This document shows positions 1 through 63,454 of a DNA stretch of 64,000 nucleotides, piece after piece. The first letter of the stretch is position 1; each line of letters opens with the position of its first letter. The notes beneath the pieces were generated by a model that worked only from the letters and a program-made list of their open reading frames with translations, ran no database searches and was not told where the DNA came from. Origin of the DNA: Vampirovibrionales bacterium (GTDB lineage: Bacteria > Cyanobacteriota > Vampirovibrionia > Vampirovibrionales > Vampirovibrionaceae); the NCBI GenBank assembly GCA_029866025.1, contig JARXAD010000011.1:24306-88305 (forward strand), read 5' to 3'. The translations under genes were made by a program, and so were the position numbers.

Positions 1-1179
1 AGACATGAACGTAGCCAAAATCATTGGCACCATGGTTGTCCATGTTTTGGCATGCAACAGGTTCCGGAAAAAACCAGCCTTCGGACCGGGAGACAATAAT
101 CGTTGCACTAAGCGTGTAGGCCTGACATACGTGGCCTCTCCAAACAGGCGCTGGGTGGCTGATTGAATAAAGGCCGGCGTTAGGGTTTTGTTGGTGCCTA
201 ACAAGTGGGCCTGAGTGGGATCTTTAAACAGGACCGGCTCCATCACATGATCCCAGAAGGTCGTCAGATGCCCCACAAACTCACGGGTAAGCCTATCCGA
301 CATGAGTGGCCCACGGGGTCCTTCTCCAATGTGAATGCGTTTGCTCAACAGGCCGGGTAGGTTCTCAGGGTTGCTTAGGCGTTTGGCCATAGTGTTTGTT
401 TTGGCAATGGTGCCGGTTAACTCGTTTAGCAATGCCTCATAAGCGTGGGTGTTTTTTGGATCGTGCAATTTGGCCCGGGCGGCCTCTATTAATCGCTGAG
501 CAACCACATCGGGTTGCTTTAGGCGTCCTTCCATCACCTTTAAATTGAAGCCATGCTCCAAGCTGCTCTGTTTAATTTCTTCGGCAAACCCACTGCCCAC
601 CAAATTGGATTGCACAGTGTTAAACACATGGGTGTAGAACGCATGTTGCAACTCTTGTACGGTTTTGCCGGTGTTTTTTGGAAGCACTTTGCCAAAAGTA
701 TTGGCTAGGTAGGTCAATTCTTGAGCAGGTATGTGGTGCTTCAGCAAATCAACACGCGGGTTATTGGGAAATAAACTATTTTGGAAGGACAATTGGGGTA
801 AGGTACGATTCACCACCTTGCCAACGGCCAAACCCAACCATCCGGACAAGAAGACCAAACTAACCAAGCCCGTAAATTCGCGGATCGCCGTTTCAATGGC
901 CATTTGAGGGCCACGTTCTTTCCACTCCAATGCCGTACGCGGCAGGCACATCCCTAAAAAATCGGTTAAAAACAACTCCCGCATCATGTCTGCTTTGGCC
1001 CACGGGCCGGCGTTGGCAATGGTGTTAATAACGCTTCCCACAAAGCCAAACTGAGGGGCAAGACTTACTCTCACAGCCCTATTGAGCGGGGCTTTTTTAT
1101 CAGCAGCGGAAGACAAAGGGTGTCGACCATACAATGGACCCACAGGGACAGATGCAGCAATGGTTTGAATGAAAACCAC
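1..1179 (-). CDS. Hypothetical membrane-associated protein, partial (open through the window edge, at least 393 aa); not in the ORF track
   Basis: Hand translation: GTG at 1179 directly after an in-frame TAA, no stop down to position 1. VVFIQTIAASVPVG...SLAPQFGFVGSVINTIANAG...TDFLGMCLPRTALEWKERGPQMAIETAIREFTGLVSLVFLSGWLG. Resembles the N-terminal block of 57121..59265. Confidence 0.8.
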   Translation of the reverse strand, partial: MVFIQTIAASVPVGPLYGRHPLSSAADKKAPLNRAVRVSLAPQFGFVGSVINTIANAGPWAKADMMRELFLTDFLGMCLPRTALEWKERGPQMAIETAIREFTGLVSLVFLSGWLGLAVGKVVNRTLPQLSFQNSLFPNNPRVDLLKHHIPAQELTYLANTFGKVLPKNTGKTVQELQHAFYTHVFNTVQSNLVGSGFAEEIKQSSLEHGFNLKVMEGRLKQPDVVAQRLIEAARAKLHDPKNTHAYEALLNELTGTIAKTNTMAKRLSNPENLPGLLSKRIHIGEGPRGPLMSDRLTREFVGHLTTFWDHVMEPVLFKDPTQAHLLGTNKTLTPAFIQSATQRLFGEATYVRPTRLVQRLLSPGPKAGFFRNLLHAKTWTTMVPMILATFMS

Positions 1180-1315
1180 TTAAAAAACGTAAGCCTTTAC
1201 GACGTTGTACGGACGTTATAAGAGAGTGCGGAGATAGCGCCCAAAAAACAAAGGGGGCTAGTAGGTAGATAAACCCCCGTCAAGGTGGGTTTATGCTAAG
1301 GGTGCCGGTTTAGGC

Positions 1316-1333
1316 GTTACAGAGTGTTACAAA
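1316..1333. promoter_or_regulatory. OmpR-type (HLR1/RpaB-like) direct repeat GTTACAGA-GT-GTTACAAA
   Basis: 10-bp-period direct repeat in intergenic DNA ~140 bp upstream of the 1..1179 gene; one mismatch to (G/T)TTACA(T/A)(T/A)-N2-(G/T)TTACA(T/A)(T/A). Confidence 0.45.
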
Positions 1334-1349
1334 AAGCTGCTTACGCAGC
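1331..1349 (-). terminator. Intrinsic terminator downstream of leuA-comEA
   Basis: Minus strand reads GCTGC-GTAA-GCAGC-TTTTT: 5-bp stem, GNRA loop, U-tract. Confidence 0.55.
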
Positions 1350-1620
1350 AGACCCTGTAGAACACGAATAATTGCGACAGGAAGAAGCGTAACAGGAGCG
1401 GGAGCCAAAGCTAGATACTTGGCTGCAAAATGCTAATAATTGAGAGCGATAAGAGAATGCTGTTAGCATAAGGAACGCCTGTCAGGGAATCTCGCAAACA
1501 ACCAAGTATTAACGCAAGGGGAAAACCCAGCGGTTGAACCTTGATAGTGGCCATAGCTTGCCTCAAACACATGATACTTTCAAGTGGTTAGTGTTTCGCT
1601 ACAGTTATTATTTGACACCA

Positions 1621-2142
1621 TTATTGGGCAGGAATGGGCTTGAAGTAAGGCTGGAGAAGGCTTAGTAACTTAGGGCCAACGCCCTTCACCTCATCCAAGG
1701 CTTCAACCGTTTTAAACGCCCCGTGCTGCTTGCGAAAGACCACAATACGCTGAGCCAGCTTAGGGCCAATGTGGGGTAACACTTCCAATTGATGAGCAGA
1801 AGCACGATTAAGATCCACGGACGCCAAAGGCGGTAGAGCCTTTTGGGCAAATTGACCCAACCCTTTTGAATGGTGAGCCCCCTTAAGAAGCTTTTGGGGC
1901 GCTTGAGTGGCTATTGCTTTGGCATACACCGCAGGCGGTATTTCATCTTCTTTAGGCGCCGCGGGTAACCATAATTGTCGTCGACTAATCACCGGTGTCA
2001 CATCCACCACCAGGTCCGGGGTTGGCTGATTGATCCACACCATCACACCTACCAGCAGCAGCACAACCCCTCCCAATAGCCACTCATCCCGCCCAAAGGG
2101 CGGTTTTATTAATGGGTGAACGGGTTTATCACGCGCTGTCAT
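1621..2142 (-). CDS. comEA: ComEA-family helix-hairpin-helix DNA-binding protein
   Basis: N-terminal TM segment, then VDLNRASAHQLEVLPHIGPKLAQRIVVFR..HGAFKTVEALDEVKGVGPK (two HhH motifs). Confidence 0.85.
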   Translation of the reverse strand: MTARDKPVHPLIKPPFGRDEWLLGGVVLLLVGVMVWINQPTPDLVVDVTPVISRRQLWLPAAPKEDEIPPAVYAKAIATQAPQKLLKGAHHSKGLGQFAQKALPPLASVDLNRASAHQLEVLPHIGPKLAQRIVVFRKQHGAFKTVEALDEVKGVGPKLLSLLQPYFKPIPAQ

Positions 2143-2167
2143 TGACTGGCTTTTTAAAATTGAGGAG

Positions 2168-3584: not shown

Positions 3585-4091
3585 ATGAGCCCTTGGCGCA
3601 CTTTAGTATTGAGTAACCCTTTTAAGGACCTGTTTGCATTGCTGTGGGTACTCATGTGGGCACTAATAACCCTAACGGCTGGCTCCTTGGCGTGGGCCCA
3701 AGATACCCCCACCAAAGATCTAAAGACCTTACCGCGGTCCATGCGGGATCCTACTCACCCCACTGTTTTGGTGTTTCATGCGCCTTGGTGTGGCACCTGT
3801 AAAAAAATGGCACCCCTGGAAAAAAAACTAGAAAAGCGAACCCATCCAACAGTTCAATGGCGTTGGTTTAACACCGAAGATCCCGCATCGGACAAAATGA
3901 TGAAACGGTTTAACATTCATGTAACCCCCACCTATTTGCTGTTTAATGCCGACGGAAAAGGGGTGTATCGGATGGAAGCCATGATTCGACCAGCAATCCT
4001 TCGACAGGAAGTGCTTCAGCTTCAAGCCAAAGCCATGCCGTCAGGCAGCCCCCCTCTGTCCTCTAAGCAAGGAGGCTCTCGCAAACCATGA
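3585..4091 (+). CDS. Exported or membrane-anchored thioredoxin-like protein
   Basis: Hydrophobic N-terminus, FHAPWCGTC (CxxC), cis-Pro motif VTPTYLLF. Stop overlaps the next start (ATGA). Confidence 0.85.
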   Translation: MSPWRTLVLSNPFKDLFALLWVLMWALITLTAGSLAWAQDTPTKDLKTLPRSMRDPTHPTVLVFHAPWCGTCKKMAPLEKKLEKRTHPTVQWRWFNTEDPASDKMMKRFNIHVTPTYLLFNADGKGVYRMEAMIRPAILRQEVLQLQAKAMPSGSPPLSSKQGGSRKP

Positions 4092-5371
4092 GCCTCTCTT
4101 GGCCCTTTGGCCTTTCTCAAAATCGCTCCTCTTCTACCCTCTATTGCTGGGTTGAAGCTCTACCCACAGCCATTGTGCCTGAAGTTAAAGACGTAGCCAT
4201 TTGGCTGTGGTGTTCAGATCATGCGTCCCTCTACTCGGCTGTGGCCCCGTTGTTATCTTACCAGGCAGACTTAGAAACCCAACTTTTAGAAGGTTTGCAA
4301 CCGCTTGTTGCACAATGGCAAAGCGCCCATGCAAGCAATCATTCGCCGCCTTCCTTTGTCTGGTTGGTTCCGGCTGCTGTGGACCAAACCATGGTGCTAG
4401 CCAAAGGGCTGTTGCCTGAAGAAAAGCTGCTAGCGCTTCAAGCCCAATTGGAAGAACGCTGGGTGTTTCAAAAGGATGCGCCCGCCATTGCCTACCAACC
4501 TGGAAACGATGAAACCACCGCCTTTGAAAAGCCCCTTGTGGCAGCATTGGGAACACGTAGTGTTGCTTTTCTTACCCAAACGGCCGAACAACTGGGGTTT
4601 TCACAATCGCGTATGGTGTGGCAAACGCCGGTGCTATGGCAAGGCCTGCACCAGGTTACAGGCAACGTAAAACGCGGCGTGTGGCTTAGCCGGTTTCAAT
4701 TTGTGGAAATGGGGTGGATGGACGATACCCTTCGTCTTTGGAAGTGTGTGGGACACCCCTACCCCCGGGGCGAAGAGTCGTTGGAAACAGCCGTTGCATC
4801 CTATTGTCAACCCAACCCTGCTTGGGTTTTAAACCAGCACCCCGATATCGACACAGCCCGTTTGTTAGCGGCATTAACCAACGCCACGCCCGAAAGCCCT
4901 TCCGTCGAAACGACCCGCGTACTTACCCCCCAGGGGGACACAGGGATACATTGGGTCCAGAAAGCCGTTGCCAGCCATCCACAGGTGTTAACCCAATGGG
5001 CTTTTAAAATACCCACCTTGCTTGGGTCGCCATCCGCCACACCTAAACAAGGGCTTAGGGTTACCTGGCAATCTCTCTTGGGTAGCGTTTCTGTTATTTC
5101 GTTAGTCTTGGTGTTACTCACAGGCCTAACACTGGCCTGGCAAACCCAACAGCTGGCCCAGCGCCGCCAGGCCATTTCTTCCAAACAATTACTGTTAGCA
5201 CAAGCCGTGACAAGGCATCATCGTCTGCTCAACAATCGCATTATATTAACTTTAAGCAATGGTCCTTTCACACCAACCAAACCATCCACCTCTTTTGCAT
5301 GGCAAGGGCAAGCCTTAAGGCCACAACCGCGTTTGCGACCGTTTTCCAAAACAAAAGGCGGCCACCCATGA
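4088..5371 (+). CDS. Hypothetical bitopic protein, possibly PilM/PilN- or GspL-like
   Basis: 427 aa: large soluble N-terminal part, one TM near the C-terminus (SVSVISLVLVLLTGLTLAW), then a Q-rich helix. ATGA overlaps on both sides. Family call is architectural only. Confidence 0.5.
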   Translation: MSLSWPFGLSQNRSSSTLYCWVEALPTAIVPEVKDVAIWLWCSDHASLYSAVAPLLSYQADLETQLLEGLQPLVAQWQSAHASNHSPPSFVWLVPAAVDQTMVLAKGLLPEEKLLALQAQLEERWVFQKDAPAIAYQPGNDETTAFEKPLVAALGTRSVAFLTQTAEQLGFSQSRMVWQTPVLWQGLHQVTGNVKRGVWLSRFQFVEMGWMDDTLRLWKCVGHPYPRGEESLETAVASYCQPNPAWVLNQHPDIDTARLLAALTNATPESPSVETTRVLTPQGDTGIHWVQKAVASHPQVLTQWAFKIPTLLGSPSATPKQGLRVTWQSLLGSVSVISLVLVLLTGLTLAWQTQQLAQRRQAISSKQLLLAQAVTRHHRLLNNRIILTLSNGPFTPTKPSTSFAWQGQALRPQPRLRPFSKTKGGHP

Positions 5372-9375: not shown

Positions 9376-9406
9376 GAGGATTCCTTTTTATAACGCGTGG
9401 TAGCGC

Positions 9407-10462: not shown

Positions 10463-10577
10463 ACACCCACCCTGTCCACAAGAAATCAAAAATGGTCACA
10501 CACCACACACAAGCGCGCAAACAATCCGGGGGTATAGAATAACCCAAGCAAGCTAATTATAAAGCCGACTGTGGCGG

Positions 10578-11045
10578 TTATTCTTCGTAACGCATGGTGG
10601 CTGTGGCGGCACAATCAAAGCTGTCAATATCGGCAGCGGTGGTGGCGTTTACCCCCAGGGTTTGTAAAAAAGCCCCCACGGGGATGCCATCGGTAACGGT
10701 GTAGGTCACTCTTACGGTGACGGTTCTGGCACCGACCGTGCCGGTGGGCCCCGTTAAGGTAATGTTACCGCTAGGAATGGTACGCCCACCCGTAACCCCA
10801 CTAAAATACGATTGCACCCCACTGCGAACCGTGGTGGTGACAGAAGCAGGGTTTGTAGCCATCAGCGAGCTGACTGCAGCCAACCGAACCCCATGACGTG
10901 CCGCCATAAACACCGTGGTTTGCAGGTACAAAAACACGCACAACGCCGCAATAAACATAAAGAGTATGACGGTAATAAGGATGCTAAAGACAGACTCAAT
11001 AATGGCCTGCCCTTGCTGTGTTTGACGAATCAACTCTAAAGCCAT
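10578..11045 (-). CDS. tadE: TadE/TadF-like pseudopilin (~155 aa)
   Basis: From ATG 11045: RQTQQG|QAIIESVFSILITVILFMFI...AARHGVRLA, C-terminal VTVRVTY. The upstream ORF-track extension overlaps the flp2 gene and is not used. Confidence 0.85.
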   Translation of the reverse strand: MALELIRQTQQGQAIIESVFSILITVILFMFIAALCVFLYLQTTVFMAARHGVRLAAVSSLMATNPASVTTTVRSGVQSYFSGVTGGRTIPSGNITLTGPTGTVGARTVTVRVTYTVTDGIPVGAFLQTLGVNATTAADIDSFDCAATATMRYEE

Positions 11046-11299: not shown

Positions 11300-11349
11300 A
11301 GGGCCTGCTTTGTTATGCGCAATGGGGTAAAACAGGGTAAAGAAGGCAA

Positions 11350-17283: not shown

Positions 17284-18672
17284 CTATTTTTGAGTGGTGG
17301 GTTGGGCAGATAGATACTGAGAGTTTTTGGTAATCACGTTGGCCACGGTTTGAGCAAAATTCTGGTAGCGCTCAATGATGTCTTCTGCTTTTTCATTGCC
17401 TTTTCGATTTCCTTCAGATTTCCATTTTTCCACCATTAGACGGATCAATGAATCCACCTCAAAGCGCTTCCTGTGTGGGAATTGATGCGTTACAACGACC
17501 AGTTCCTGTTGCTCCAAGGGCCGATCCAAATGGCCCGCATTCATATCGATATAACGTTTGTAGTCATATACCGGGTCATATTTATTGTCTAAAAACAACG
17601 CTGCGGAAGTGCGTGGCTCTTTTAGTTCGTCTTCTGTGGCCAGTACCGCATGCCACGTGGCACTAATAGGATTTGCCATCCGCTTGGTGGCTAAATCCAT
17701 TTGCCGCCCCAGCTGAATGAGCAATTCTCCGGGCTGGGCTTGGACTTTAATCCACTTGTCTAAGGGAACACTCCGTGCGCCGACTTCCGTTTCCACCTTG
17801 TAGTTAGTGGCAACCGAATGCGGCAACACATACAAGCCTTCTTTTTCACTGGCAGGCAGTACCGTAATGTAGCCGTAGTCCAGATGTGGCTCTAAACGCA
17901 CGTATTGGTCGCCCTCGGTACTGGATAATGTATCCGTAATTGTGGCATTATCTTTTTTTAATTGGTTGGCATCGGGGTAGTAAATTTGTCGCATGGATGC
18001 GCTCGCCGCAACGGGTTTTGTCCCGTATTCCAGAGTGTCGCCAAAAATTTGTTTGGCCAACAATCCATCGGTTTTGCCTTCATAGATGAGGCTAATCACC
18101 TCTATCATATCTTTGGCAGTGGGTTGTAGGGCATCAAACAGGGCAATGCCATTGTTGGTTAGGGCCTCATGACCCTTCATCCACACATTGCTTTCGTGTC
18201 CAACCAAAAATAAGCGTTTCGGGTCGCCCTGTTTTAATTGAAGCCCCCTGAACTGGTTAATGTCCGGCGTATTGTAGGGCCAAAGTTGGTCTAACTCCTG
18301 CTTTAGCACGTTGGCTGTTGTTGCAAAAGAGCGATTGACCAGTTTCTGATCAACCCCATGGTTTATAACCCGAATATAACCGTTTTCTTTTAAGGCCTGT
18401 AGAAATGGGGCCGCTAATTCCATACGCTCTTCGGCTGAGTTGGCAAGAATTAGCTGTGTTTTGAGGTGCTTTAAATCAAATACATTATTGGGCTCACTCA
18501 CATACCCAAAACGAACGGCCTGTAGACGCTGACTGCCGTAAAAGGAAGGTCCCATCTGGTGCAAGCCCAACACCGAAGAAGGGTTAGGAGCAGCCATAGT
18601 TGCTGCTGGATGTAACGCAGGTGTGCGTGATTGCATTTGAAAAACGCTTGGCAGACCCTGAATAACCGTCAT
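17284..18672 (-). CDS. 2-oxoglutarate/Fe(II)-dependent oxygenase (IPNS/2OG-FeII family) with N-terminal extension
   Basis: HLDYGYITVL (HxD), distal WHAV, RTS (RxS), DIOX_N-like GYIRVINHGVD. Confidence 0.85.
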   Translation of the reverse strand: MTVIQGLPSVFQMQSRTPALHPAATMAAPNPSSVLGLHQMGPSFYGSQRLQAVRFGYVSEPNNVFDLKHLKTQLILANSAEERMELAAPFLQALKENGYIRVINHGVDQKLVNRSFATTANVLKQELDQLWPYNTPDINQFRGLQLKQGDPKRLFLVGHESNVWMKGHEALTNNGIALFDALQPTAKDMIEVISLIYEGKTDGLLAKQIFGDTLEYGTKPVAASASMRQIYYPDANQLKKDNATITDTLSSTEGDQYVRLEPHLDYGYITVLPASEKEGLYVLPHSVATNYKVETEVGARSVPLDKWIKVQAQPGELLIQLGRQMDLATKRMANPISATWHAVLATEDELKEPRTSAALFLDNKYDPVYDYKRYIDMNAGHLDRPLEQQELVVVTHQFPHRKRFEVDSLIRLMVEKWKSEGNRKGNEKAEDIIERYQNFAQTVANVITKNSQYLSAQPTTQK

Positions 18673-22251: not shown

Positions 22252-23316
22252 TTAGGCGATCGCTTTTGAATTCACTGTGGCTTTCTGCTGCCTTCCTCTA
22301 GCCAAGGACTTTACCGTATTTAAAATTTCACGGTATAAGTGTATTCTCGCATGATGAAACGCAGGAAATGCGTCGTATAACATGCTTGGGGTTGGGTTAA
22401 CCTCTAATACATAAATCTCGCCGTTAACCGATCGCCCAATATCTACCCCTGCCCATTTAAGCCCAATGCGGTTAACAGCCTCTTCAGCAATAGCTGCCAT
22501 TTCCATATTAATTTCAGCAGTCTCTCGGCCACCGCCCTTTTTAATGTTTGTAGCAAGCTCACCTGGGGCCGAGATATTTTTTGCAACCATTCGAGTTTTT
22601 CCGTTAATTACAAAATAGCGGTAGTCTACTACCCTTTTTTCCCCAGTGGCTGGGTTCATTTCGGTTTCAAGTGCTATCTGCTCTTGAACCAAGCGATTGG
22701 GAGCTATGTGATTTGAGAGTTCCGATTTTTTCACAAACCAAACACCATCCCCCCCTGAAGATCCTTGGGCCTGCTTTACAACAACATCCTCGGGTAATTG
22801 ATCGAGCTCTTTTTGGCTAAGCTCTTTTGATAAATCAAAGGTTAGGGGTAAGTTGGCGAATCCGTGTTCTTTTAAAAACTGATAACACTTTAATTTATCG
22901 TCGGACTTTTTAATGGCTTCTGCTGAGTTAAGTACAGAAATATTTGCGTCTTGCAATTTTTGAAGAATACTTAGCGTAAATGGTGTTTGTTGCTTTGCTC
23001 CAATAACGGGTAACACAGAAAAAAATGGAAGATGAGTTAACGAATAAATTTTACCTGCAATGGTTAATACCCAACCCTTTGGACCCTTTTTAAAGGATTC
23101 TGGATAAATAACAATGGGTTTTGACCCAGTTTGCTTCGCTAATCGAATTAAATACTTGGCATTGGGTGCATACCGCCCCTTAATTTTCGTGGTGAGAATG
23201 GCATAATGTGCTGGTTTTAGCTCAGTAGCATGAATCTTATGAGGGGATTTACGACCAAAGTGTACAAGCATCTTGGTTTCTCTTGTTGTAGCTGTAGTTG
23301 CTTTCCTTTCAAACAA
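22252..23316 (-). CDS. RimK-family ATP-grasp ligase with N-terminal extension
   Basis: DDKLKCY, VVVKQAQGSSGGDGV, LVQEQI, DYRYFVINGK, ATNIKKGG, AGVDI, VLEVNPTP. DNA visibly AT-richer than its neighbours. Confidence 0.85.
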   Translation of the reverse strand: MFERKATTATTRETKMLVHFGRKSPHKIHATELKPAHYAILTTKIKGRYAPNAKYLIRLAKQTGSKPIVIYPESFKKGPKGWVLTIAGKIYSLTHLPFFSVLPVIGAKQQTPFTLSILQKLQDANISVLNSAEAIKKSDDKLKCYQFLKEHGFANLPLTFDLSKELSQKELDQLPEDVVVKQAQGSSGGDGVWFVKKSELSNHIAPNRLVQEQIALETEMNPATGEKRVVDYRYFVINGKTRMVAKNISAPGELATNIKKGGGRETAEINMEMAAIAEEAVNRIGLKWAGVDIGRSVNGEIYVLEVNPTPSMLYDAFPAFHHARIHLYREILNTVKSLARGRQQKATVNSKAIA

Positions 23317-32889: not shown

Positions 32890-33522
32890 TTAACCTCTGT
32901 CAATTTTATGGGCTGTTATCAAGTAGGTGGTATCTGGCGATTTTTTAGAGGGTATGGTTAAAACGCTTTCTTGGTGATACGCCGCTGTGACAGGCACTTC
33001 ATTCCATTGCAAGGTGTCTTGCAGCAGTTTTCGCCCCATATCCACAACGGAATACCGCCACGTCGGCCACGCTGTAATAAGCTGATTATTGGCCTTAACG
33101 GTATCTTGTGCGTCGGATTGGTTCGTATGTTTCCAGGCCCGAACAGTAACCATTGGCTTATCGAATTGAGGAGAAAAGGCGTTTTTAAATTTTTGATGGA
33201 GTGTGATTCGGTCTTCATACGACTCAAACAGATGGATAACCTTGTTAATCAAGCCATTGAGTGCAGGAAAGAAAGATAAAAAGACCTTGTCTTCGTACTT
33301 AGCAATGTGGGGCGCTTGTAACTGTTTTTCGTTAGTAAAATCAACTTTTTTAAAAAACTCATATTTTTCTGGGCTCAGAGAAGATTTTTCCGTACGCAAA
33401 TAAAGGTCGAGAGATTCTTTTAAATCCTTACGTGTCTCACCCGTTTCCTTTGTGTTTGCCTCTAGCAAACGACCAAAGTGAGGGAAAGCTTGAGGAGAAA
33501 AAGTCATGCTGGTCATGGGCAA
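32890..33522 (-). CDS. Hypothetical protein (N-terminal PHFG motif)
   Basis: 210 aa, AT-richer DNA, fills the gap between recognisable genes. Confidence 0.7.
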   Translation of the reverse strand: MPMTSMTFSPQAFPHFGRLLEANTKETGETRKDLKESLDLYLRTEKSSLSPEKYEFFKKVDFTNEKQLQAPHIAKYEDKVFLSFFPALNGLINKVIHLFESYEDRITLHQKFKNAFSPQFDKPMVTVRAWKHTNQSDAQDTVKANNQLITAWPTWRYSVVDMGRKLLQDTLQWNEVPVTAAYHQESVLTIPSKKSPDTTYLITAHKIDRG

Positions 33523-34456: not shown

Positions 34457-34888
34457 ATGCACGTTCAGTTTGCTAATAACCCTCATAGCAAAAAACCCTT
34501 TGGCTATGATTCGCCCGACGTAATGCTCGACCAATTTTTAGCTCACCTATTGGGAGATGCCCCCTTGGATACCTACACCCAAACGAGTAATAACGACGTT
34601 AAAAACACTGCCCCATCGGCTCCCAAAGCGGATAGCAAAGCCGGTACTGTGGAAACCGTGCAGCGGGTGTTTAACCCAGCAAAAAACTCTCCCAAAATCC
34701 CAAGTATTGGTTCAGCGGTAAAAATCGGCATCGGATCCTTCATTAAAGCCGCCCTGGTTACACCCTTTTACTTTGTGTGCCGGTTACTGGGCATGCCCAA
34801 GCTAAGTTTTATGCAGCGTGCGGCTGTGATTGGCGGTAACAGCGTGTACCAAGGCTATGTGAAACCCGCTTTTTCCCTAAATGCCTAA
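34457..34888 (+). CDS. Hypothetical protein (N-terminal KPFG motif, C-terminal hydrophobic helices)
   Basis: AAGGAG RBS before ATG 34457; 143 aa. Confidence 0.7.
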   Translation: MHVQFANNPHSKKPFGYDSPDVMLDQFLAHLLGDAPLDTYTQTSNNDVKNTAPSAPKADSKAGTVETVQRVFNPAKNSPKIPSIGSAVKIGIGSFIKAALVTPFYFVCRLLGMPKLSFMQRAAVIGGNSVYQGYVKPAFSLNA

Positions 34889-36316: not shown

Positions 36317-37393
36317 ATGCAAGCAGCCCATTTTTCGTCTTATCCGGCTTATCCCATTAGAGGGATTGGACTTGCATCAAATGCTTTAAGTTGTCCGGCC
36401 TTAAGGCCATTGTTTACCACTCAATTTAGTAGTGATATCAATACGACTGGAAAGTCAAACACACAGACGCTGCAACAGCACGTGGAAGCCTTAGCCAAAT
36501 TGGATCGTTCCTTTGAGAACGTAACGGGGTTGAACCAAGCAGCCGATTACATCAAACGTCAGTGGATTGCCCAAGGGTTTGAGGTGACTGAGCAGCCGTT
36601 TAAAGTTGACGGCAAAATCTATAAAAATTTGATGGTTTCTCTGGGCCCACAAACAAAGGAGCGGCTTATTGTGGGGGCTCATTACGATGTGTGTGCCCAC
36701 GAACCCAGTACCTCCCAGTTTGAAACCGCAACAATCATGGATGCCATTCGATTCCATCGCACAAAAAAGCCGATTCGCTATAAGGAACGGCATGATATGC
36801 CGGGGGCCGATGATAATGCCAGTGGCGTTGCAGGACTTTTGGAAATGTCTCGTCTACTCAAGGCCAAAGAGAGCACTTTAACAAAGCGGATGGATTTAAT
36901 TGCCTTTACCACGGAAGAACCTCCAAATTTTGACACCGATGATATGGGAAGTGCCCGTCATGCCGCATCTATTAAAGGAGAGTCGCACCATGTAAAAGGC
37001 ATGATTTCTCTGGATATGATTGGTTATTTTCGGGATGAGAGCAACACTCAAAAATACCCGATTCCCTTCTTAAATTGGATTATGGGAAACAAAGGAAACT
37101 ACATTAGTGTATTGGGTGATTTAAAAGCGTGGCGTTTGGTCAAAACTTTGAAAAACGCTATCAAGCAAAACACAACGTTGCCGGTTCATTGGCTTAGTTT
37201 GCCTTCCTTCTTTCCGGGTGTGCATTTGTCCGATCATTTAAACTATGCTCGACAAGGTATTCCTTCTGTAATTGTGACGGATACAGCCTATTTTAGAAAT
37301 CCCCACTACCACCAACACACCGATACCCCAGAAACACTGGACTACACAAGGATGGGGAAAGTAGTTGATGGCGTGCTGGGAAGCCTAACTTAA
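36317..37393 (+). CDS. M28 family metallopeptidase
   Basis: VGAHYD, GADDNASGVAGLLE, FTTEE, SLDMIG, SDH, YHQHTDT. Confidence 0.9.
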   Translation: MQAAHFSSYPAYPIRGIGLASNALSCPALRPLFTTQFSSDINTTGKSNTQTLQQHVEALAKLDRSFENVTGLNQAADYIKRQWIAQGFEVTEQPFKVDGKIYKNLMVSLGPQTKERLIVGAHYDVCAHEPSTSQFETATIMDAIRFHRTKKPIRYKERHDMPGADDNASGVAGLLEMSRLLKAKESTLTKRMDLIAFTTEEPPNFDTDDMGSARHAASIKGESHHVKGMISLDMIGYFRDESNTQKYPIPFLNWIMGNKGNYISVLGDLKAWRLVKTLKNAIKQNTTLPVHWLSLPSFFPGVHLSDHLNYARQGIPSVIVTDTAYFRNPHYHQHTDTPETLDYTRMGKVVDGVLGSLT

Positions 37394-46501: not shown

Positions 46502-46735
46502 TTACCACGTTGTAGAATCGTAAAAACGATACGCCCGCTTTTTGCCTCTTGCGATTTTTTCTTTCTGCAATTTAGTAGGTTCACCCTCTTCCCTAGCTGC
46601 TTTACCAACTAAGAAAGGTAGCTTTTTAAAAGGAATCTTGGCGGCTTTTTTATTTGCTGTTTGGCTGGTTGCTTGGTTTCCTAGTGTTGTATTTTTTAAA
46701 CCAAAGGGAATAGGAGTCATCGAAGAAATAAACAT
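46502..46735 (-). CDS. Small basic hypothetical protein (N-terminal IPFG motif)
   Basis: 77 aa, Lys-rich, AT-rich DNA. Confidence 0.5.
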   Translation of the reverse strand: MFISSMTPIPFGLKNTTLGNQATSQTANKKAAKIPFKKLPFLVGKAAREEGEPTKLQKEKIARGKKRAYRFYDSTTW

Positions 46736-47560: not shown

Positions 47561-47893
47561 TCAGGTTGTTTTCTTGTGTAAAAATGAATCCATTTTTTGT
47601 TTTTCTTGCCTCCGTAGGCCCTCCGCTACAGATCCGCCCACAAGAGCACCCAATAAAGAGTAAAAGCTACGTTTACTTTTAACCAATCCCCGAACCAAGT
47701 CGCCTAAAAGGATACCACCCAGGGTATAGGGAAGATCGGTAACAAAATTTTCTGAAAAAACAGTGCCAAGTTGCCGAAGGGTTTGTGGCTTATTGGTCGA
47801 CGTTTGTTTTCGACTCTGAGCGATGGCCTGTTGTGCGGCAGGAGACGAAAGGCCAAAAGCGGGTTGAAACGATACGGGCATAAGATAAAACAT
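47561..47893 (-). CDS. Small membrane protein with glycine-zipper-like helices (N-terminal PAFG motif)
   Basis: Start moved to ATG 47893; LGGILLG and LLGALVGG helices. Confidence 0.6.
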   Translation of the reverse strand: MFYLMPVSFQPAFGLSSPAAQQAIAQSRKQTSTNKPQTLRQLGTVFSENFVTDLPYTLGGILLGDLVRGLVKSKRSFYSLLGALVGGSVAEGLRRQEKQKMDSFLHKKTT

Positions 47894-47963: not shown

Positions 47964-48350
47964 TTATGGCTTGTAACCGTACAAAGCATCCACATAGGCA
48001 GGGTAAGGGCGCGTGGATTTATCACGCATGGCGGCGTACAGCCGTTTGCTTTCTGGCCAATGAGCAATACCTGCAACCGCTTGGCCCAAAATCATCCCTA
48101 AAATGGGCAACAATACTTTGCCAAACCCCTTGTTAAGAAATCTTGCCCCCAATAAACCCAAGCCCAATCCACCCAAAGCGCAGGGAATCATGGTGGTGTA
48201 ATAGCGTTTGATAAAGGCATCGCTCTGTTTAATCAGTGCCACCGAATCGTTAGCCGAAAGACCATACTGGGCTTGCATCATGGCCTGACGGGCAGCAAGG
48301 GACAGAAACCCAAAGTGCAACTGAGAGAGATGAATTGTAGGTGACTGCAC
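47964..48350 (-). CDS. Small membrane protein with glycine-zipper-like helices (N-terminal LHFG motif)
   Basis: 128 aa; ALGGLGLGLLG and ILGMILGQAVAG helices. Confidence 0.7.
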   Translation of the reverse strand: MQSPTIHLSQLHFGFLSLAARQAMMQAQYGLSANDSVALIKQSDAFIKRYYTTMIPCALGGLGLGLLGARFLNKGFGKVLLPILGMILGQAVAGIAHWPESKRLYAAMRDKSTRPYPAYVDALYGYKP

Positions 48351-56393: not shown

Positions 56394-56585
56394 TGCCGAG
56401 GGGCCAGCCCCTCAGCGCTCCCCGCACAGGGACTGCGTCCCTTGTGTATCCCGCAACGGATCTGGGCGACTACTCTCGCGGTTTTCGGGCGTCGCCAGAA
56501 CTGCGGCTACGCTTTGCTTGCCCGCAGACAGGCGTTGTTGGGTTAATGCTAGCGCATTGTAAACCCAACAACCCGCCCTTAACCA
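56394..56585 (+). repeat. ~192-bp palindromic interspersed repeat, copy B
   Basis: Colinear and ungapped with copy C; about 21 mismatches in 192 bp counted by eye. Confidence 0.92.
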
Positions 56586-56663
56586 CGGCAATTAGATAGT
56601 GGAAAGCCCTAAGGGTTTTAAGCATTTACGCACTATGCAAACTATATAAACGCACTTCGTGCG

Positions 56664-56760: not shown

Positions 56761-57120
56761 GAAAGACTTATATATTATTTATATAATAATACAATTCATT
56801 TACACTCCTCCAATCGGCTGACATGAGAAAGAAGGCTGGAACCTAATATGTAACAATTTATTTACAAAGGCGGGTTACAAGGGCTGTAATTGCACGTTGG
56901 GATCTTGAGGTGCTTTAATACACATGACAGACGTGAGTTTACTTATGTTTGTTGGTTCAAGCCATTGAACCGGTGTGAATTAGAGGCGCAGCCTTCAACA
57001 GTATTTGTGGCCAAGACGGTGGAACGTCGATTGCAGGCCACGAAGAAAGGGGACAGGCTGCCGAAACGGTTTTGATGATTGCGGTAACGCAAGCACTCGC
57101 GGGTTTCCACACCCAAGCCG

Positions 57121-59265
57121 TTGGTGATACGGGTTAAATTCCCTGTCACTGTCCAGCACTTGCCTGCTGGGTGCGCTAGTCACTCAATCCCTATCTGGAG
57201 CATTGTTATTCTTACCCGTTTGCCCTTAACGTCTGCTTTTCAGGCAACGGGGGACCCCCAGTTTTTGGGTTCCTCCCCGCATGCCTTGGTTGCGTCGCCC
57301 CCAGCGAAAGCCAAGCCGCTTTCGGCTGCTCATTCAAATAGCCGTGCAACCCAATTTGCAGGTAGTGGGATAATGCAGCAGGTGGGCAACGCCATTCAGG
57401 CCATTCCCCGTTTTTTAGATCACCACATTTACAGCGATCCGGGTATTCGTTACGCCACCGAGCAAACCGTGTGCTTTACGTTGCCGCGCACCGTGGTTCA
57501 GGTAAACCGCAACATTCACGAAACAGGCCTAAAAAATGTGTTGGCCGGTTGGGAACGCTTTCTCAACGATTTTTCGGCGGATATTTTAGACACCTTTGCC
57601 CCCGGCGCTATTGCGTATTTGGGCATTAGCCGCTGGCTGGATAAACGCAAGGGAACCATCACCCACGCCATGATGGGGCAGCAGGCCATGGGGCTGTACA
57701 GCCATATTGGTGCCGAGGCCACCAGCCAAGCCGATTTTTACCACCGCCTGGAAAGCTATTTGCACACCCATGGTTCGGCCACACCCACTGCAGCCAAGCC
57801 CGCGCTTAATCTGCAAGCCACTATTCAGGAATTAATGGAAAAAGAGGCGGCACGCGCGAAGGTACCCTTACTAAAGCGTTGGTTTAGTAACAACCCCATC
57901 AAGACGTTTAAAACCCAGAAAGCCCAGCAGTTGGCCAGCCAGCTAGGCCACACCCAGTTGGAATTAACCCTACCTTATGCTGACGCTTTTGGCCACGAAG
58001 CCACTCGGCTTAAGCGCCAGGCCAGCATTGCCATTCCCGATCTTCTCTCTGACCTTAAAATCATTCAGCGGCATTTAAGCAACGCGGCCCCCCATGCAAA
58101 CCAGCTAAAAACCACGGAAGCCTTTGGCAAGCGTCTGGTTCACTTAATGGATACCACTCACACCGCAGCCAAGCACCACATGTGGGCCAATGCCATGGCC
58201 TTGGTAGCCAGTTTAGCCATGCCCTTTATCAGCCGATTGATTACCAAAGCCGTTGCTGGAGATGACCGGAACCCAGCCACCCAAGCGCTGCAAGAGCATT
58301 ACGGCACGGATAGCTTACTGAAAAAAGCCGTCCCTCACCCGCATCGCGCCACGGCAACTTTTGGCCAGCAAGCTGGTGATGAAAAAGAAATTAAACAACC
58401 GTGGTGGCACTTTGGGATGGGCAGATCCGCAACCAACTCGTCCACTAAAAAGGCGTCCGTTGGACGCTTTGTGTGGTTTCCGTATTTGTCTGAGTGCTGG
58501 AAGGAAGGGAAAATCACCCCGATGGCCATTACCGCGGCCTTTTTTGGGGCCTTGGGCTTTATGGTCAACCGGCGCTTTAGCAAACAGGGCCTTAGTTTTT
58601 TTAAACCCAAAGATTTGCTCAAAGTGTACGAATTTCAACGTGGCTTTCCGTGGACCACCGTGGCCCAAATGGAACTAACCTACGGGTTGCTGTGTGGCTT
58701 CCGTCTGTTGTCGGCTCGCGACCAAGGCGACTGGCAGGAAGCCGCCCTGCGGGATGCCTTCCTTGGTTGGCCCACCCTCACCTACGGCTTTGAGGCCATT
58801 CGTAAAGGCCTCATGCGCGGCGGCAACACCCTGCTGAAGAAGGTGGTTCAGCGGGGCTCCCAAGATGCTGCCAGTAAATTTCACAATCTAACAATACCTG
58901 AGACCGCCCAATGGATGAGTCACGGCGTTGAAAAGAACGCTAAATTTTGGCAACCCGAATTTTGGGGCACCCCTCGTGCCCGCGATGAAATAACCCAAGA
59001 GTTGCTGACCCATACTGTTCCTGCCAGCTGGAGCCTTGAGGCCGTAGGGAAACTAACCCAGTACACTCAACGTGTGCAGGAGTGGATTACGTTAGCGTCT
59101 GCGGCCATGTCCGTGACGTTATTGTCGTATTTAGAGCCCAAGTGGGGCATTCAAATGACCACTGCACTGGAAACCAAGCGGTATCATACCAAGTTGGGTC
59201 ATGTTATCCGGCGGTTAACTGCACAAAACAGCAATCCAAGCCCCAGCATGAATGTTAATTTTTAG
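57121..59265 (+). CDS. Large hypothetical membrane protein
   Basis: Up to 714 aa with several hydrophobic helices; N-terminal block similar to the 1..1179 protein. True start uncertain. Confidence 0.75.
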   Translation: MVIRVKFPVTVQHLPAGCASHSIPIWSIVILTRLPLTSAFQATGDPQFLGSSPHALVASPPAKAKPLSAAHSNSRATQFAGSGIMQQVGNAIQAIPRFLDHHIYSDPGIRYATEQTVCFTLPRTVVQVNRNIHETGLKNVLAGWERFLNDFSADILDTFAPGAIAYLGISRWLDKRKGTITHAMMGQQAMGLYSHIGAEATSQADFYHRLESYLHTHGSATPTAAKPALNLQATIQELMEKEAARAKVPLLKRWFSNNPIKTFKTQKAQQLASQLGHTQLELTLPYADAFGHEATRLKRQASIAIPDLLSDLKIIQRHLSNAAPHANQLKTTEAFGKRLVHLMDTTHTAAKHHMWANAMALVASLAMPFISRLITKAVAGDDRNPATQALQEHYGTDSLLKKAVPHPHRATATFGQQAGDEKEIKQPWWHFGMGRSATNSSTKKASVGRFVWFPYLSECWKEGKITPMAITAAFFGALGFMVNRRFSKQGLSFFKPKDLLKVYEFQRGFPWTTVAQMELTYGLLCGFRLLSARDQGDWQEAALRDAFLGWPTLTYGFEAIRKGLMRGGNTLLKKVVQRGSQDAASKFHNLTIPETAQWMSHGVEKNAKFWQPEFWGTPRARDEITQELLTHTVPASWSLEAVGKLTQYTQRVQEWITLASAAMSVTLLSYLEPKWGIQMTTALETKRYHTKLGHVIRRLTAQNSNPSPSMNVNF

Positions 59266-59816: not shown

Positions 59817-61232
59817 TTATTTTTTATTAGTAATGGCTTGCCAAATTAAAAACACGGGCAACCCTAACAGCGTAAAGCCGGCACCAATCAGGCTGGTTTG
59901 CTGGGTTTGAGGAGCCACCAACAAATAAGCGCTGAGGACACTGGCACCAACAATGTAGCCAATAGGAATGAGGTAATCCGTCCAACGCGTCATACGCACT
60001 TGCTGGGGAATGGTTTGGGCCAGTTTTAGCAAGCCGCCAATGGTGAGCACGTAAAACACCAAGGCCGTAAAGATAATGAAGGCCAGCAGGGTGCTGTAGC
60101 TGCCACTCATGGCAAGCAACACACCCCAACCAAATTGCGCCCACAAACTCACATTGGGGGTTTTGGTCACAGGGTGAAGCTGGGCAAAGGGTTTGAATAA
60201 CAAGCCATCGCAGGCCATGGCGTAAAACACCCGCGCACCTGACATGATCATGCCATTGAGGCAACCAAAGGTAGACACCAAAATCATGATGGCAATGAGG
60301 GTGCCGCCCAAGGGCCCAAACAAGGTGGTCATCATGGTGGCGGCCACTTTGTCATCGGGGGCGTGGGCAATCACATCCATGGGCAGTACGTTGAGGTAGG
60401 CCAGGTTCGCCAACACATACAAAACAACCACGGCACCGGCACCCAACACCAAGGCTTTGGGCAAGGTCACGCTAGGATTTTTCACTTCACCGCCAATAAA
60501 GGTAACGTAGCACCACGCATCCGATGAGAACAACGGCCCCACAGCTGCCACCGCCAAGATGGGCATGAGGCCATAGGTGCCAATATCCCCCGTGGTGGGA
60601 ACGGTAAAGTTAAACAAGTTCACATGACCGGCCCACAGGTGATGGCCCAGCGCAAAGCCAATGACAATGAGCACCAGCAAGGCCAACACCTTGAGGGTGG
60701 TAAAAATGTTTTGCAGCTTACTAGCGCTTTCCACGCCTTGGGTGTTAAACCACGTGAGGAACAGCAAACAGGTGGCAGCCAATAGTTTTTCAGTAGTGAG
60801 AGACAAGCCAAAGGGCAGGGCCGCAATGGCTTGGGTGTTAATAGCAGGCCACAGCACCCCCACATAGCGGGCAAAGGCCACCGCCACCGCTGCCATAGAA
60901 CCCGTTTGAATCACCCAAAAGAAGACCCAACCGTATAAAAACGCCGGGATTTTTCCCCAACATTCGCGCAAAAACACATATTGGCCACCGGCTTCCGGCA
61001 TGTGGGCGGCCAATTTTCCGTAGCTGGCGGCACCAAACAGGGTAATCACGCCCGTCAGCACCCATAGCCAAATCATGCCGGTTTCCGTACCCATGTAGCG
61101 GGCGGTTTCGGGAGACACCAAGAAAATCCCCGAGCCCACCATGCTGCCAATGACGATGGCGGTGGCGCTAAACAAGCCCAGCGTGCGGTTCATGTCGCTA
61201 GCAGGGGCGGTTTCTGATGGGTTCGTAGTCAT
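59817..61232 (-). CDS. APC-superfamily amino acid permease
   Basis: LGLFSATAIVIGSMVGSGIF, PEAGGQYVFL, GGEVKNP, SGARVFYAMACDG, KTPNVSL; about 12 TM segments. Confidence 0.95.
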   Translation of the reverse strand: MTTNPSETAPASDMNRTLGLFSATAIVIGSMVGSGIFLVSPETARYMGTETGMIWLWVLTGVITLFGAASYGKLAAHMPEAGGQYVFLRECWGKIPAFLYGWVFFWVIQTGSMAAVAVAFARYVGVLWPAINTQAIAALPFGLSLTTEKLLAATCLLFLTWFNTQGVESASKLQNIFTTLKVLALLVLIVIGFALGHHLWAGHVNLFNFTVPTTGDIGTYGLMPILAVAAVGPLFSSDAWCYVTFIGGEVKNPSVTLPKALVLGAGAVVVLYVLANLAYLNVLPMDVIAHAPDDKVAATMMTTLFGPLGGTLIAIMILVSTFGCLNGMIMSGARVFYAMACDGLLFKPFAQLHPVTKTPNVSLWAQFGWGVLLAMSGSYSTLLAFIIFTALVFYVLTIGGLLKLAQTIPQQVRMTRWTDYLIPIGYIVGASVLSAYLLVAPQTQQTSLIGAGFTLLGLPVFLIWQAITNKK

Positions 61233-61337: not shown

Positions 61338-61529
61338 TGCCGAGGGGCCAGCCCATCAGCGCTTCCTGCACAGGGACTGCGTCCCTTGTGTATCCTGCAA
61401 CGGGTGTGAGCGATTACTCTCGTGGTTTTCAGGCGTCGCCAGAATTGCGGCTGCGCTTCGCTTGCTGGCAAGCAGGCGTTATTGGGTTAATACTAGCGCA
61501 TTGCAAACCCAACAACCCTCCCTTAACCA
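61338..61529 (+). repeat. ~192-bp palindromic interspersed repeat, copy C
   Basis: Same modules as copy B; lies about 75 bp past the 3' end of tRNA-Ser. Confidence 0.92.
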
Positions 61530-61603
61530 GGGGTTATAGGTAATAAACAAGCACTTTAAAAAGGGTAACAAGATGATAGTTTATAAGCCCATCTTGCTGG
61601 GGG

Positions 61604-61688
61604 TGGCGGAAGTGACAGGAGTCGAACCTGCAACCCCTCGCGGGGCGACCGCTTTCGAGGCGGCTCCCTAACCATTCGGATCACTTCC
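61604..61688 (-). tRNA. tRNA-Ser(CGA) with non-canonical acceptor and D-arm junction
   Basis: GGAAGTGA TCCGAATGGTTAGGGA GCCGC-CTCGAAA-GCGGT, long variable arm, CAGG-TTCGACT-CCTG TCACTTCC G CCA; discriminator G and encoded CCA. Confidence 0.88.
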
Positions 61689-61781
61689 AAACGCCACGGT
61701 GCACAGACAAGGCCTGCTTCAGGAGATCTAAAAAATAGCACTCTCACACGACAAGGTCTAGCCCTATAGGCTTAATAGGTG

Positions 61782-62585
61782 CTAACGCGAAAAAGTTAAA
61801 GCCTTGTGAACGGTAGGATTGTTCAGAACGGCTTCATGAGTCAAATCAAAATGAATGGGTGTGGCCGACACATAGTTGTGTTGTACCGCCCAACTGTCCG
61901 TGTCTTTAATTTCTTCATTGCCCAAAACGACTTCACCCGCCAACCAGTAGTACACATTGCCGCGCGGGTCCAAACGTCGGTCATAGTCATCGCTGTAGGT
62001 ACGAGTACCCAGCTTGCATAGGCGAACCCCTTTTATGTCCTCGTAGCTGGCCGTAGGGGTATTCAGATTCAGCACCGTGCGGGTGGGCAGCTTGGCCGCC
62101 AAAATAGTGGGGAGATACTCGCACAAGAACTGAGCGCTGGGGTTAAAATCGGCCCCTTTAGTGCTGCCATTAAATAAAGAAATAGCCACACTGGGCAAGC
62201 CATGAATGGCACCTTCTAAGGCCGCGCTGACGGTGCCCGAATACAGCACATCATTACCCAAGTTGGGCCCGTGATTAATGCCCGAAATCACCACATCGGG
62301 GCGTTGGTCCAAAATGGCGTTGAGCGCCAGCTTAATGCAATCGCTGGGGGTGCCGGTAACGGAATACGCTGCCTGCACCGGAAACTCACTGCTGGTTTCA
62401 AAGGGCACTTCATCCACACGCAACGGCTTGTGTAAGGTTAAGGCATGGCCCATGGCCGATCGCTCCCGATCGGGAGCCACCACAATGACGTTGTGGTACT
62501 TGCTTAGCCACGTGACGAGGGTACGAATACCAGCAGCTTGAATGCCATCATCGTTGGAAACCAGAATGGTGAGTTTGGAGGTCAT
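61782..62585 (-). CDS. surE: 5'/3'-nucleotidase SurE
   Basis: ILVSNDDG, VAPDRERSAMGHALT, GTPSDC, SGINHGPNLG, YSGTVSAALEG. Start moved to ATG 62585. Confidence 0.97.
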   Translation of the reverse strand: MTSKLTILVSNDDGIQAAGIRTLVTWLSKYHNVIVVAPDRERSAMGHALTLHKPLRVDEVPFETSSEFPVQAAYSVTGTPSDCIKLALNAILDQRPDVVISGINHGPNLGNDVLYSGTVSAALEGAIHGLPSVAISLFNGSTKGADFNPSAQFLCEYLPTILAAKLPTRTVLNLNTPTASYEDIKGVRLCKLGTRTYSDDYDRRLDPRGNVYYWLAGEVVLGNEEIKDTDSWAVQHNYVSATPIHFDLTHEAVLNNPTVHKALTFSR

Positions 62586-62736
62586 GGGCGTCTTCTTTGT
62601 GCCATACAATGCATCTTTTTATTCTAAGGGGTGATGGATAAATGGGGGGCCTTGGCCTGGGGGATTCAATGGTATAGTGGAGGCGAAATAACCCCTCAAA
62701 GCCCCACCATGCTGCAAAAGATAAGGATAGAGACCC

Positions 62737-63048
62737 ATGGAGCGCGTAATACTGGCCTACGATGGCACCGATGAACAAGCCTTGGAACGCCGCATGGCCC
62801 ACCGCGAGGCCCACTTGGCATTGATTAAAGAAATGCGGCCGTATTTGGTGCACGGTGGAGCGTTACTGAGCGATGAGGGCACCATGATTGGGTCAATGAT
62901 CATCACTAATTTCCCCTCTCAGCAAGCGTTTGAGGACTGGATGACCCGAGAACCCTTTATAACTCATAACGTGTGGAGCGATATTAAAATTTTGCCCTTT
63001 GCCACGGCTCCCAGCTTTGTGGGCAATATCCCACAGCCAGTGGCTTAA
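62737..63048 (+). CDS. YciI-family protein
   Basis: RRMAHREAHL...GGALLSDEGTMIGSMII...EPF. Confidence 0.9.
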   Translation: MERVILAYDGTDEQALERRMAHREAHLALIKEMRPYLVHGGALLSDEGTMIGSMIITNFPSQQAFEDWMTREPFITHNVWSDIKILPFATAPSFVGNIPQPVA

Positions 63049-63052
63049 GACC

Positions 63053-63454
63053 TTATTTAAGCAATTCCGCGGCTTTCAATGCAGTTTTAATGTAATCAGG
63101 GCCAAAACTAGAGCCGTCTACATTGACTGGAACTCGTAAAACATCACCAGGCTGACTTTTCGAAGGGGCTACTGCCTTTGTACTGTGGTAAAGGCTAAAA
63201 AACTGGCCACCACAATTACCATTTGCAACGATTTCATTTTCTTCTACATTCAAAGTGGCATTCTCAGGCCTAACTTTTGATGGTGTTAAAACAATGCTTT
63301 CATCCTTAAAACTGTTTACTGCAGTCTCTATAACAGCATTTACGTCTCCACGTGTTGCATCCCCAAAGCCAACACGGGTTAGCACCGTCTTGGGTAAGGC
63401 CTTTGTGCCATAAGAAGTTCGGGACAACGATGAGGCAAACAAAATCATAATCAA
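63053..63454 (-). CDS. Hypothetical protein (N-terminal VGFG motif)
   Basis: 133 aa, AT-richer DNA. Confidence 0.65.
   Translation of the reverse strand: MIMILFASSLSRTSYGTKALPKTVLTRVGFGDATRGDVNAVIETAVNSFKDESIVLTPSKVRPENATLNVEENEIVANGNCGGQFFSLYHSTKAVAPSKSQPGDVLRVPVNVDGSSFGPDYIKTALKAAELLK

Follow-up and report, generated by a model that had tools for sequence, protein, structure and literature searches.

We analyzed a 64,000-nucleotide stretch of a Vampirovibrionales contig (hereafter the window), in which an earlier sequence-only reading had noticed a recurrent x-F-G motif near the N-termini of unrelated hypothetical proteins and had proposed a lineage-specific secretion or processing signal for an effector-like protein set. 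Our reading, to which we give a probability of about 0.5, is that this set is mixed and includes one real docking-type element, located in the leader of a 2-oxoglutarate (2OG) oxygenase. Four things would be combined in the set: chance occurrences, over-extended reading frames, one paralog pair and this one element.

The oxygenase gene (17284..18672, minus strand) encodes an IPNS/T7H-like 2OG-Fe(II) protein (Pfam DIOX_N and 2OG-FeII_Oxy), and QAVRFG lies in its N-terminal leader of roughly 60 residues. A public gene call, P0005, is this same protein from M26, at window coordinate 18597. In an AlphaFold model built from 17 sequences, residues 1-61 have a pLDDT of ~40 and the domain exceeds 90. 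Foldseek matched this domain to T7H, IPNS and EFE-type oxygenases. The first relatives were four proteins with 36-46% identity, and a full HMMER profile search returned about 17 homologs at E < 1e-10 including P0005 itself (homolog set P0001-P0030). Fifteen members carry a leader, 38-92 residues long and alignable at two places only, and P0006 and P0007 start at the domain with no leader. The leaderless members and the low pLDDT bear out the earlier description of the leader as an add-on for this one listed protein.

The two alignable places are short motifs centered on Phe. Motif A, P-S-F-Y-G-S-Q-R-L in the window (residues 42-50; 18523..18549, minus strand), has the consensus [H/Y]-F-[G/S/A]-x-Q-L in the alignments, as in YHFGAQL, NHFGSVL, QHFSGQLL and QHFASQL, and the AlphaFold model places a helix of just 4 residues there. 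Motif B, A-V-R-F-G-Y in the window (residues 52-57; 18502..18519, minus strand), appears in the family alignment as a hydrophobic residue followed by [Q/R/H/E]-F-[G/S/A], as in RVQFGE, GIQFGK, QVRFAS, GVRFSG and RIHFGD. It lies 8-15 residues after motif A and 10-25 residues before the first strand of the domain (IPVVDL), and it is kept in 14 of the 15 leader-bearing members, down to ~20% identity. As controls we used the 79 unrelated loci that a contig scan with LigA as query returned along with one Melainabacteria locus (L001). They hold about 1,240-1,400 open reading frames (ORFs), the count being set by the ORF length cut-off, and 1238 were used in several tests. The motif B pattern occurs in these controls ~0.5 times per 1000 residues. 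Position-specific scoring matrices (PSSMs) for the two motifs were trained on the 2OG family with the window excluded, and the window's motif A reached 12.4 with PSSM A, a score that no control ORF attained. The 2OG leaders are net basic and S/T/P/Q-rich, with 3.6% D+E (9.4% in control N-termini), 16% S+T and 9.9% K+R.

The model and the alignments show a leader that is predicted to be disordered and dispensable for the fold, with two motifs conserved while the rest drifts. Conservation of this kind within a drifting disordered leader is the pattern of a short linear docking motif. Only the two short motifs would be under selection, and they may form a docking site for a partner protein such as a receptor, a chaperone or a processing enzyme. 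Docking is the mechanism we hold most likely for the 2OG leader, and it might also apply to the leader of an M28 peptidase described below. The gene neighborhood of the oxygenase is not conserved and differs in all ten loci, so no partner can be read from the context.

For the x-F-G set as a whole, the sequence-only reading had itself named the comparison that could refute it, namely the FG frequency at N-termini against interiors and controls, and FG proved no commoner at N-termini. The dipeptide is slightly over-represented everywhere (70 in 19,290 residues); its density per 1000 positions is 4.1 within the first 60 residues and 3.5 beyond them. Its N-terminal to interior ratio was 1.08 in the window, 1.33 in the relatives and 0.94 in the 1238 control ORFs. 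With two start conventions, and with hypothetical and core genes taken separately, FG ranked 13-64 of the 400 dipeptides for N-terminal enrichment. A permutation-controlled discriminative scan covered every residue pair at gaps of 0-2 and drew its null from random stretches inside the same proteins; it placed FG at rank 158-319 of about 1000 pairs (P 0.17-0.33). At about one FG per 280 residues, roughly one protein in five is expected to have an FG in its first 60 residues. x-F-G as written is not above chance.

The most N-terminally enriched pair in the window was His-Phe, present in the first 20 residues of 8 of 54 proteins (P 1.2e-6, in frame only; family-wise P below 1/300). It is carried by the ORFs at 2168, 22252, 27975, 32890, 36317, 37665, 46843 and 55717 (and 47964). 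We rejected HF as the real motif behind the x-F-G set; it is significant in the window but not enriched in the relatives. In EngB the pair is family-conserved, as in E. coli YihA.

The listed proteins had been described as unrelated, and BLAST indeed shows no similarity among them, but Smith-Waterman alignment revealed one pair of tandem paralogs (z 10.9). These are the small proteins with FQPAFG (47561..47893; AFG at 47852-47860) and SQLHFG (47964..48350; HFG at 48309-48317), both on the minus strand. In their alignment (A1) the homology runs from the F-G onward to a glycine-zipper-like hydrophobic segment. The two would share the F-G by descent and, being paralogous, count as one independent occurrence. 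Paralogy of the 1-1179 ORF with the 57121 ORF was not significant (z -0.5), and that with the 18817 ORF was marginal (z 2.35, with 2% of shuffles as high).

Some leaders are shorter than the raw ORFs suggest. A lysine riboswitch aptamer lies at 56973..57186 on the plus strand (Rfam RF00168, scoring 73.5 bits where the gathering score is 30), and the first 22 codons of the 57121 ORF overlap it. The codon score of this ORF is negative to about codon 75 and positive from about codon 80, and its first ATG is at 57373. By codon score, the likely true coding sequence is a 630-aa ORFan at 57373..59265 on the plus strand, just downstream of the riboswitch. For these reasons ATQFAG (57349-57366) is probably untranslated and lies in the 5' untranslated region, unless TTG 57286 serves as the start. 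The sequence-only reading had listed ATQFAG (57121..) and TTQFS (36317..) as variants of its motif. Both are present, and F-A and F-S fit the degenerate third position of the 2OG motif. The 57373..59265 protein matched no Pfam or NCBIfam family, and a word-indexed search gave no homolog. It might be a new membrane or transport protein under lysine control, and a permease for amino acids is encoded near it on the opposite strand (59817-61232). After the riboswitch, G5-A-C5 then T5 at 57249-57266 resembles a terminator, but it was not called by the scanner and folded no better than shuffles, and we do not claim one.

The 34256 ORF is also over-extended, with AAGGAG 8 nt before ATG 34457 and a negative codon score upstream. 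In the response regulator at 15923, HFGG falls on GGAGG, the ribosome-binding site for a start farther downstream. Most of the leaders have codon scores near zero, a value to be read with the fact that disordered composition lowers this score too. Long leaders taken from raw ORFs therefore call for caution, as they can include a riboswitch, Shine-Dalgarno sites and untranslated regions.

Outside the 2OG family, the PSSMs point to the M28 peptidase (36317..37393, plus strand), whose leader is roughly 45 residues long. AAHFSS (36323-36340) and TTQFSS (36416-36433) follow each other in it with the same order and spacing logic as in the 2OG leader. This protein has the top motif A score in the window (PSSM A 13.2, MQAAHFSSYPAY) and the second motif B score (PSSM B 9.4, LFTTQFSSDI; the 47964 protein scores 10.0). 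Its summed score, with the half-motifs in the right order, was reached by 0 of the 1238 control ORFs. Its start is uncertain, since the codon score stays low for the first ~30 codons. Neither the PSSMs nor a hidden Markov model (HMM) from the 2OG leaders gave an overall excess in other proteins; they find the family only, plus M28 by PSSM. Even the leader of the window itself gets a weak HMM score (E 1.9). With plain FG not enriched and no PSSM or HMM excess elsewhere, a common x-F-G signal on an unrelated effector-like set is not borne out.

Several observations nevertheless weigh against a mixed set with a single real element. They would agree with a lineage-wide N-terminal signal, hydrophobic-x-F-[G/S/A], that is read by one machinery. 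Many unrelated proteins would carry it, ORFans as well as some housekeeping enzymes, and it would often stand among the first 5-20 residues or where a disordered extension ends. This is the earlier idea widened and freed of its effector label, and we consider it possible but doubtful. With refined patterns that were partly chosen after seeing the data, single-digit counts and uncertain start codons, the occurrences of [QHR]FG within the first 80 residues and in the interior were 7 vs 4 in the window (P 0.014); the close relatives, loci L081-L084, gave 5 vs 3 (P 0.011) and L001 gave 3 vs 1 (P 0.056), with a control ratio of 0.86. Patterns of this kind show 4-8-fold N-terminal enrichment in the window and relatives and not in the controls. 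The regular expression taken from the 2OG family, [VILT][QRHE]F[GSA], had a control ratio of 0.76; it gave 6 vs 5 in the window (P 0.07) and 4 vs 2 in the close relatives (P 0.03). The residue set of the sequence-only reading, [QRHPAG]FG, was 2.6-fold enriched in the relatives after removal of the 2OG homologs (P 0.028). Phe in the first 40 residues is followed by G, S or A in 37.7% of cases in the window against 23.3% in the interior (P 0.002), and in 30.9% against 21.0% in distant relatives (P 0.025); the controls gave 25.1% against 25.2%. Phe itself is 1.5-1.8-fold enriched at positions 5-8 in the window and relatives, not in controls.

Individual proteins point the same way. The M28 leader matches both half-motifs, and ORFans of the relatives carry MLTAVQFGH, MSSIQFGQ and ..ALRFGH. 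Enolase, pyruvate kinase and PepA of the relatives have short N-terminal T-F-G or Y-F-G extensions with the strings TPTFGAK, DVYFGS and KTTFGF (enolase ..TPTFGAK; PepA starts MGSYKTTFGF), which argues against the effector label. At L090 631-3437 (plus strand) and L083 4759-6282 (minus strand), the extensions of pyruvate kinase (~60 aa) and enolase (~18 aa) each contain x-F-G or x-F-A. Against a lineage-wide signal stand the partly post hoc patterns and small counts, the failure of the F-[GSA] test in the close relatives (24% vs 26%) and of the regular-expression test in L001 and the distant relatives, the lack of an overall PSSM or HMM excess, and the unbiased pair scan, which does not select FG. 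The start codons are also uncertain in a genome whose Shine-Dalgarno sites are weak, with good ones at few genes.

The N-terminal bias could also arise with no targeting role, if early codons favored U-rich and small-residue choices (TTT, Ser, Thr, Pro, Gly, Ala). Such a bias might, for example, keep the initiation region unstructured where Shine-Dalgarno sites are weak, and F-[G/S/A] and S/T/P runs would accumulate. The scarcity of good Shine-Dalgarno sites, the restriction of the Phe enrichment to positions 5-8 and the use of TTT for 87% of Phe codons are in line with this. S/T/P pairs are moreover the top N-terminal enrichments in the window and relatives, housekeeping proteins included, and the pair SP is enriched in both with a family-wise P below 0.005. 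S/T/P-rich N-termini, noted earlier for the x-F-G set, are general in the genome. Starts of this type (MTA(S/T).. or MSS...) are seen in MutL, PyrE, RsmG, the sigma factor and the permease, and also in L081-L091. Even so, we find this explanation unlikely. It leaves two conserved motifs 40-70 residues into the 2OG leaders unexplained, and the GC of codons 5-8 is not lowered in the window (0.525). The nucleotide pattern C[AG]NTTYGG is enriched at 5' ends in frame 0 only (7 vs 4; other frames 1 vs 15), which places any signal at the protein level.

The same frame test bears on a DNA or RNA element, TTTGG or CAYTTTGG, that would lie near gene starts and be read as F-G in frame. TTT-GGN is the coding sequence at each of the 14 N-terminal F-G sites that were inspected, many with a preceding C, but this usage is expected from the TTT share of Phe codons, and no extended nucleotide conservation was found. 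With the codon usage and the frame test we rejected the DNA-level motif, which is hardly credible.

The sequence-only reading had proposed export or processing, but nothing indicates export. The sole secretion-related genes found in the window form a Tad/Flp pilus cluster, and the signal used there is a different one. The Flp/type IV prepilin signal (G/XXXXEY) of the Tad system is also a short N-terminal recognition site, but in the Flp-like gene at 11412-11696 ...KGQG-IVEYAG is followed by a hydrophobic helix, and no x-F-G protein has this arrangement. Type III secretion and flagellar export signals resemble the leaders in being disordered N-termini of unrelated proteins with no Sec-type core, but they have no sequence consensus; the window contains no export apparatus, only a FliA-like sigma factor and a PilZ protein. 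The Tat signal (S/T-R-R-x-F-L-K) is N-terminal and has a Phe two residues past a basic position, whereas the motif proteins lack the twin arginine, the h-region and the A-x-A site, with no R-R upstream of F-G at any F-G site. No Cys of a lipobox (L-x-x-C) follows the motif in any listed N-terminus. The absence of a Sec leader had been noted correctly: no motif protein has a Sec-like hydrophobic stretch, and the maximal 12-residue Kyte-Doolittle mean in the first 50 aa is 0.2-1.8 for the motif proteins and 2.0-2.7 for the signal-peptide-like proteins of the window.

Leader recognition motifs are also found in peptides that are made by ribosomes and modified after translation (RiPPs), for example the PFFARFL leader helix of microviridins. 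In the relative L082 (5165-6520, minus strand), a 67-aa ORF (MSSIQFGQMFQSLL...), which contains a second VQFG, lies directly upstream of an MvdD-like ATP-grasp gene. The two look like a graspetide/microviridin-type RiPP pair, and a Phe-rich leader recognized by the ligase would fit. The ATP-grasp protein of the window, in contrast, is RimK-like, and no small precursor ORF lies beside its gene. Encapsulation peptides of bacterial microcompartments and cargo-loading peptides of encapsulins are similar in that a short peptide with a poorly conserved linker docks unrelated enzymes to one partner, and some members lack it. They differ in being amphipathic helices or C-terminal, and a Pfam scan of window ORFs turned up neither a shell gene nor an encapsulin gene.

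Plastid transit peptides are likewise N-terminal, unstructured, hydroxylated and acid-poor extensions on ordinary enzymes, with short receptor motifs made of an aromatic plus Gly or another small residue (PMC5571161, PMC7463930). Their FGLK motif binds Toc34 (PMC5571161), and those of rhodophytes and glaucophytes begin with a conserved Phe (PMC7463930). Vampirovibrio, a predator, belongs to the lineage and has a type IV secretion system (PMC4451040). In a Vampirovibrio-like organism that preys on algae or parasitizes them, the leaders might mimic transit peptides, so that injected enzymes would enter the host plastid. The 2OG leaders match transit peptides in their net basic, acid-poor and S+T-rich composition, and by string reading only, the 46502 protein holds a literal FGLK and the 22252 protein FGRK. 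We nevertheless hold such mimicry to be highly improbable. The likeness is compositional only, and the 2OG consensus ([H/Y]F[GSA]xQL ... hydrophobic-[QRH]F[GSA]) differs from FGLK and fixes no basic residue after [QRH]F[GSA]. Transit peptides are carried by nucleus-encoded eukaryotic proteins and read by TOC/TIC, whereas the proteins here are encoded on a bacterial chromosome with tRNA, riboswitch and Tad pilus cluster. No type III, IV or VI secretion genes were seen in the window or in the gene tables and ORF N-termini read from the fetched loci. Leader-bearing homologs occur in contigs of 41-59% GC and of varied sample sources, and the relatives carry such extensions on enolase and pyruvate kinase. 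The likeness to transit peptides and encapsulation peptides is one of analogy, not membership.

The remaining listed sites were inspected one by one. Every listed F-G dipeptide was found in its ORF and frame, and codon usage favors the called frame for all ORFs. The motif genes have a higher AT content, as had been observed (mean GC 45.7% vs 52.0%, Mann-Whitney P 3e-4), and the recognizable catalytic domains do begin after the motif (DIOX_N at residue 67, RimK at 139, Pfam M28 at 104). LAPQFG (...SLAPQFGFVGS; QFG at 1045-1053) belongs to the 5' part of a large ORFan membrane protein (1..1179, minus strand), whose start candidates are GTG at codon 36 or 47 and ATG at codon 65; its codon score is ~zero over the first ~35 codons. 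MLVHFG (HFG at 23254-23262) belongs to the RimK-family ATP-grasp ligase (22252..23316, minus strand; Pfam RimK, NCBIfam rimK_fam below the cut-off). The likely start is ATG 23271, giving M-L-V-H-F-G. Its PSSM B score (P 0.06) is compatible with chance, and a word-indexed search gave no match.

Four small ORFans complete this group. AFPHFG (HFG at 33472-33480) is found in a 210-aa protein (32890..33522, minus strand; MTSMTFSPQAFPHFGRLLEA) that is coding by codon score and has no Pfam or NCBIfam family and no homolog. KKPFG (PFG at 34496-34504) is found in a 143-aa protein with a C-terminal hydrophobic segment (34457..34888, plus strand; MHVQFANNPHSKKPFGYD), TPIPFG (PFG at 46700-46708) in a 77-aa protein with a weak codon score of 0.07 (46502..46735, minus strand; MFISSMTPIPFGLKNTT), and TRVGFG (GFG at 63362-63370) in a 133-aa protein (63053..63454, minus strand; ...TVLTRVGFGDATRG) with a PSSM B score of 8.9 (P 0.007). 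A match of the last to IniB_NTERM was taken as noise (17 bits against a cut-off of 40). Two further sites had already been set down as chance hits: KPPFG at residues 13-17 of a ComEA-like helix-hairpin-helix protein (1621..2142, minus strand; Pfam HHH_3), and the start MSLSWPFG of a 427-aa ORFan (4088..5371, plus strand) with AAGGAGG upstream. Ten ORFan proteins, six small and four large, had 0 relatives at E <= 0.01 in 5.8 billion proteins when searched as concatenated queries.

At 51% GC, the window is densely packed with coding sequence on either strand and includes two tRNAs and the one lysine riboswitch. Pfam names leuA, hisH, prfC, mutL, mnmA, rsmG, a pyrE-like phosphoribosyltransferase, engB and surE, as well as the FliA-like sigma factor, two response regulators and the Tad/Flp cluster; hisF (26206-26997) was assigned by its N-terminus and ligA (29588-31750) by tblastn matches to LigA loci. 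The closest LigA among 185,579 species genomes, from a 'Candidatus Melainabacteria' metagenome-assembled genome, has just 55% identity. The window is the chromosome of a poorly sampled Melainabacteria-like bacterium, and the poor sampling leaves little material for comparative tests. A genome contig scan with the 2OG protein as query was empty, as were metagenome scans with the 2OG alignment (A2) and a clade-specific secretin stretch (A5).

The Tad/Flp cluster (6973-13751, minus strand) encodes an RcpA-type secretin, CpaB/RcpC, TadE/G-like proteins and the Flp-like pilin (..KGQG-IVEYAG). Its secretin (44% identity) and CpaB (32%) are the sole non-housekeeping proteins common to the window and L082. 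Tandem paralogs of ~133 aa at 38442-38843 and 38988-39392 (minus strand) share 52% identity with no Pfam match; by eye, they contain an EF-hand-like loop (D-x-N-x-D-G-K-L-x-x-x-E). At 39633-42205 (plus strand), the FliA-like sigma factor is followed by two ORFans of 226 and 340 aa, the second with a near-zero codon score. The window has no flagellar genes. A ~200-nt repeat occurs in two copies, at ~56395-56590 and ~61345-61540 (plus strand), which are roughly 85-90% identical and have several predicted stems. One copy adjoins tRNA-Ser, and both read as spurious 81-aa ORFs. The repeat matched no Rfam family (top match ncS01, 25 bits against a gathering score of 58).

Had the proposal been true as first stated, it would have given a new secretion signal and an effector catalogue for an almost unstudied lineage, which the data do not carry. 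What remains is a rare family of 2OG oxygenases with two Phe motifs in a drifting leader, from genomes that are relatives of the cyanobacterial sister group, and this leader bears the sequence signature of a candidate docking or targeting peptide. A bolder version, a Phe-based N-terminal sorting signal on acid-poor disordered extensions of many unrelated Melainabacteria-like proteins, would be read by a conserved envelope or chaperone machinery and might relate in logic or ancestry to the recognition of Phe or FGLK by Omp85/Toc75-type receptors; we regard it as a long shot. If the weak lineage-wide enrichments hold in complete proteomes, relatives of the plastid ancestor would turn out to have a sorting signal not described before, a result of real interest.

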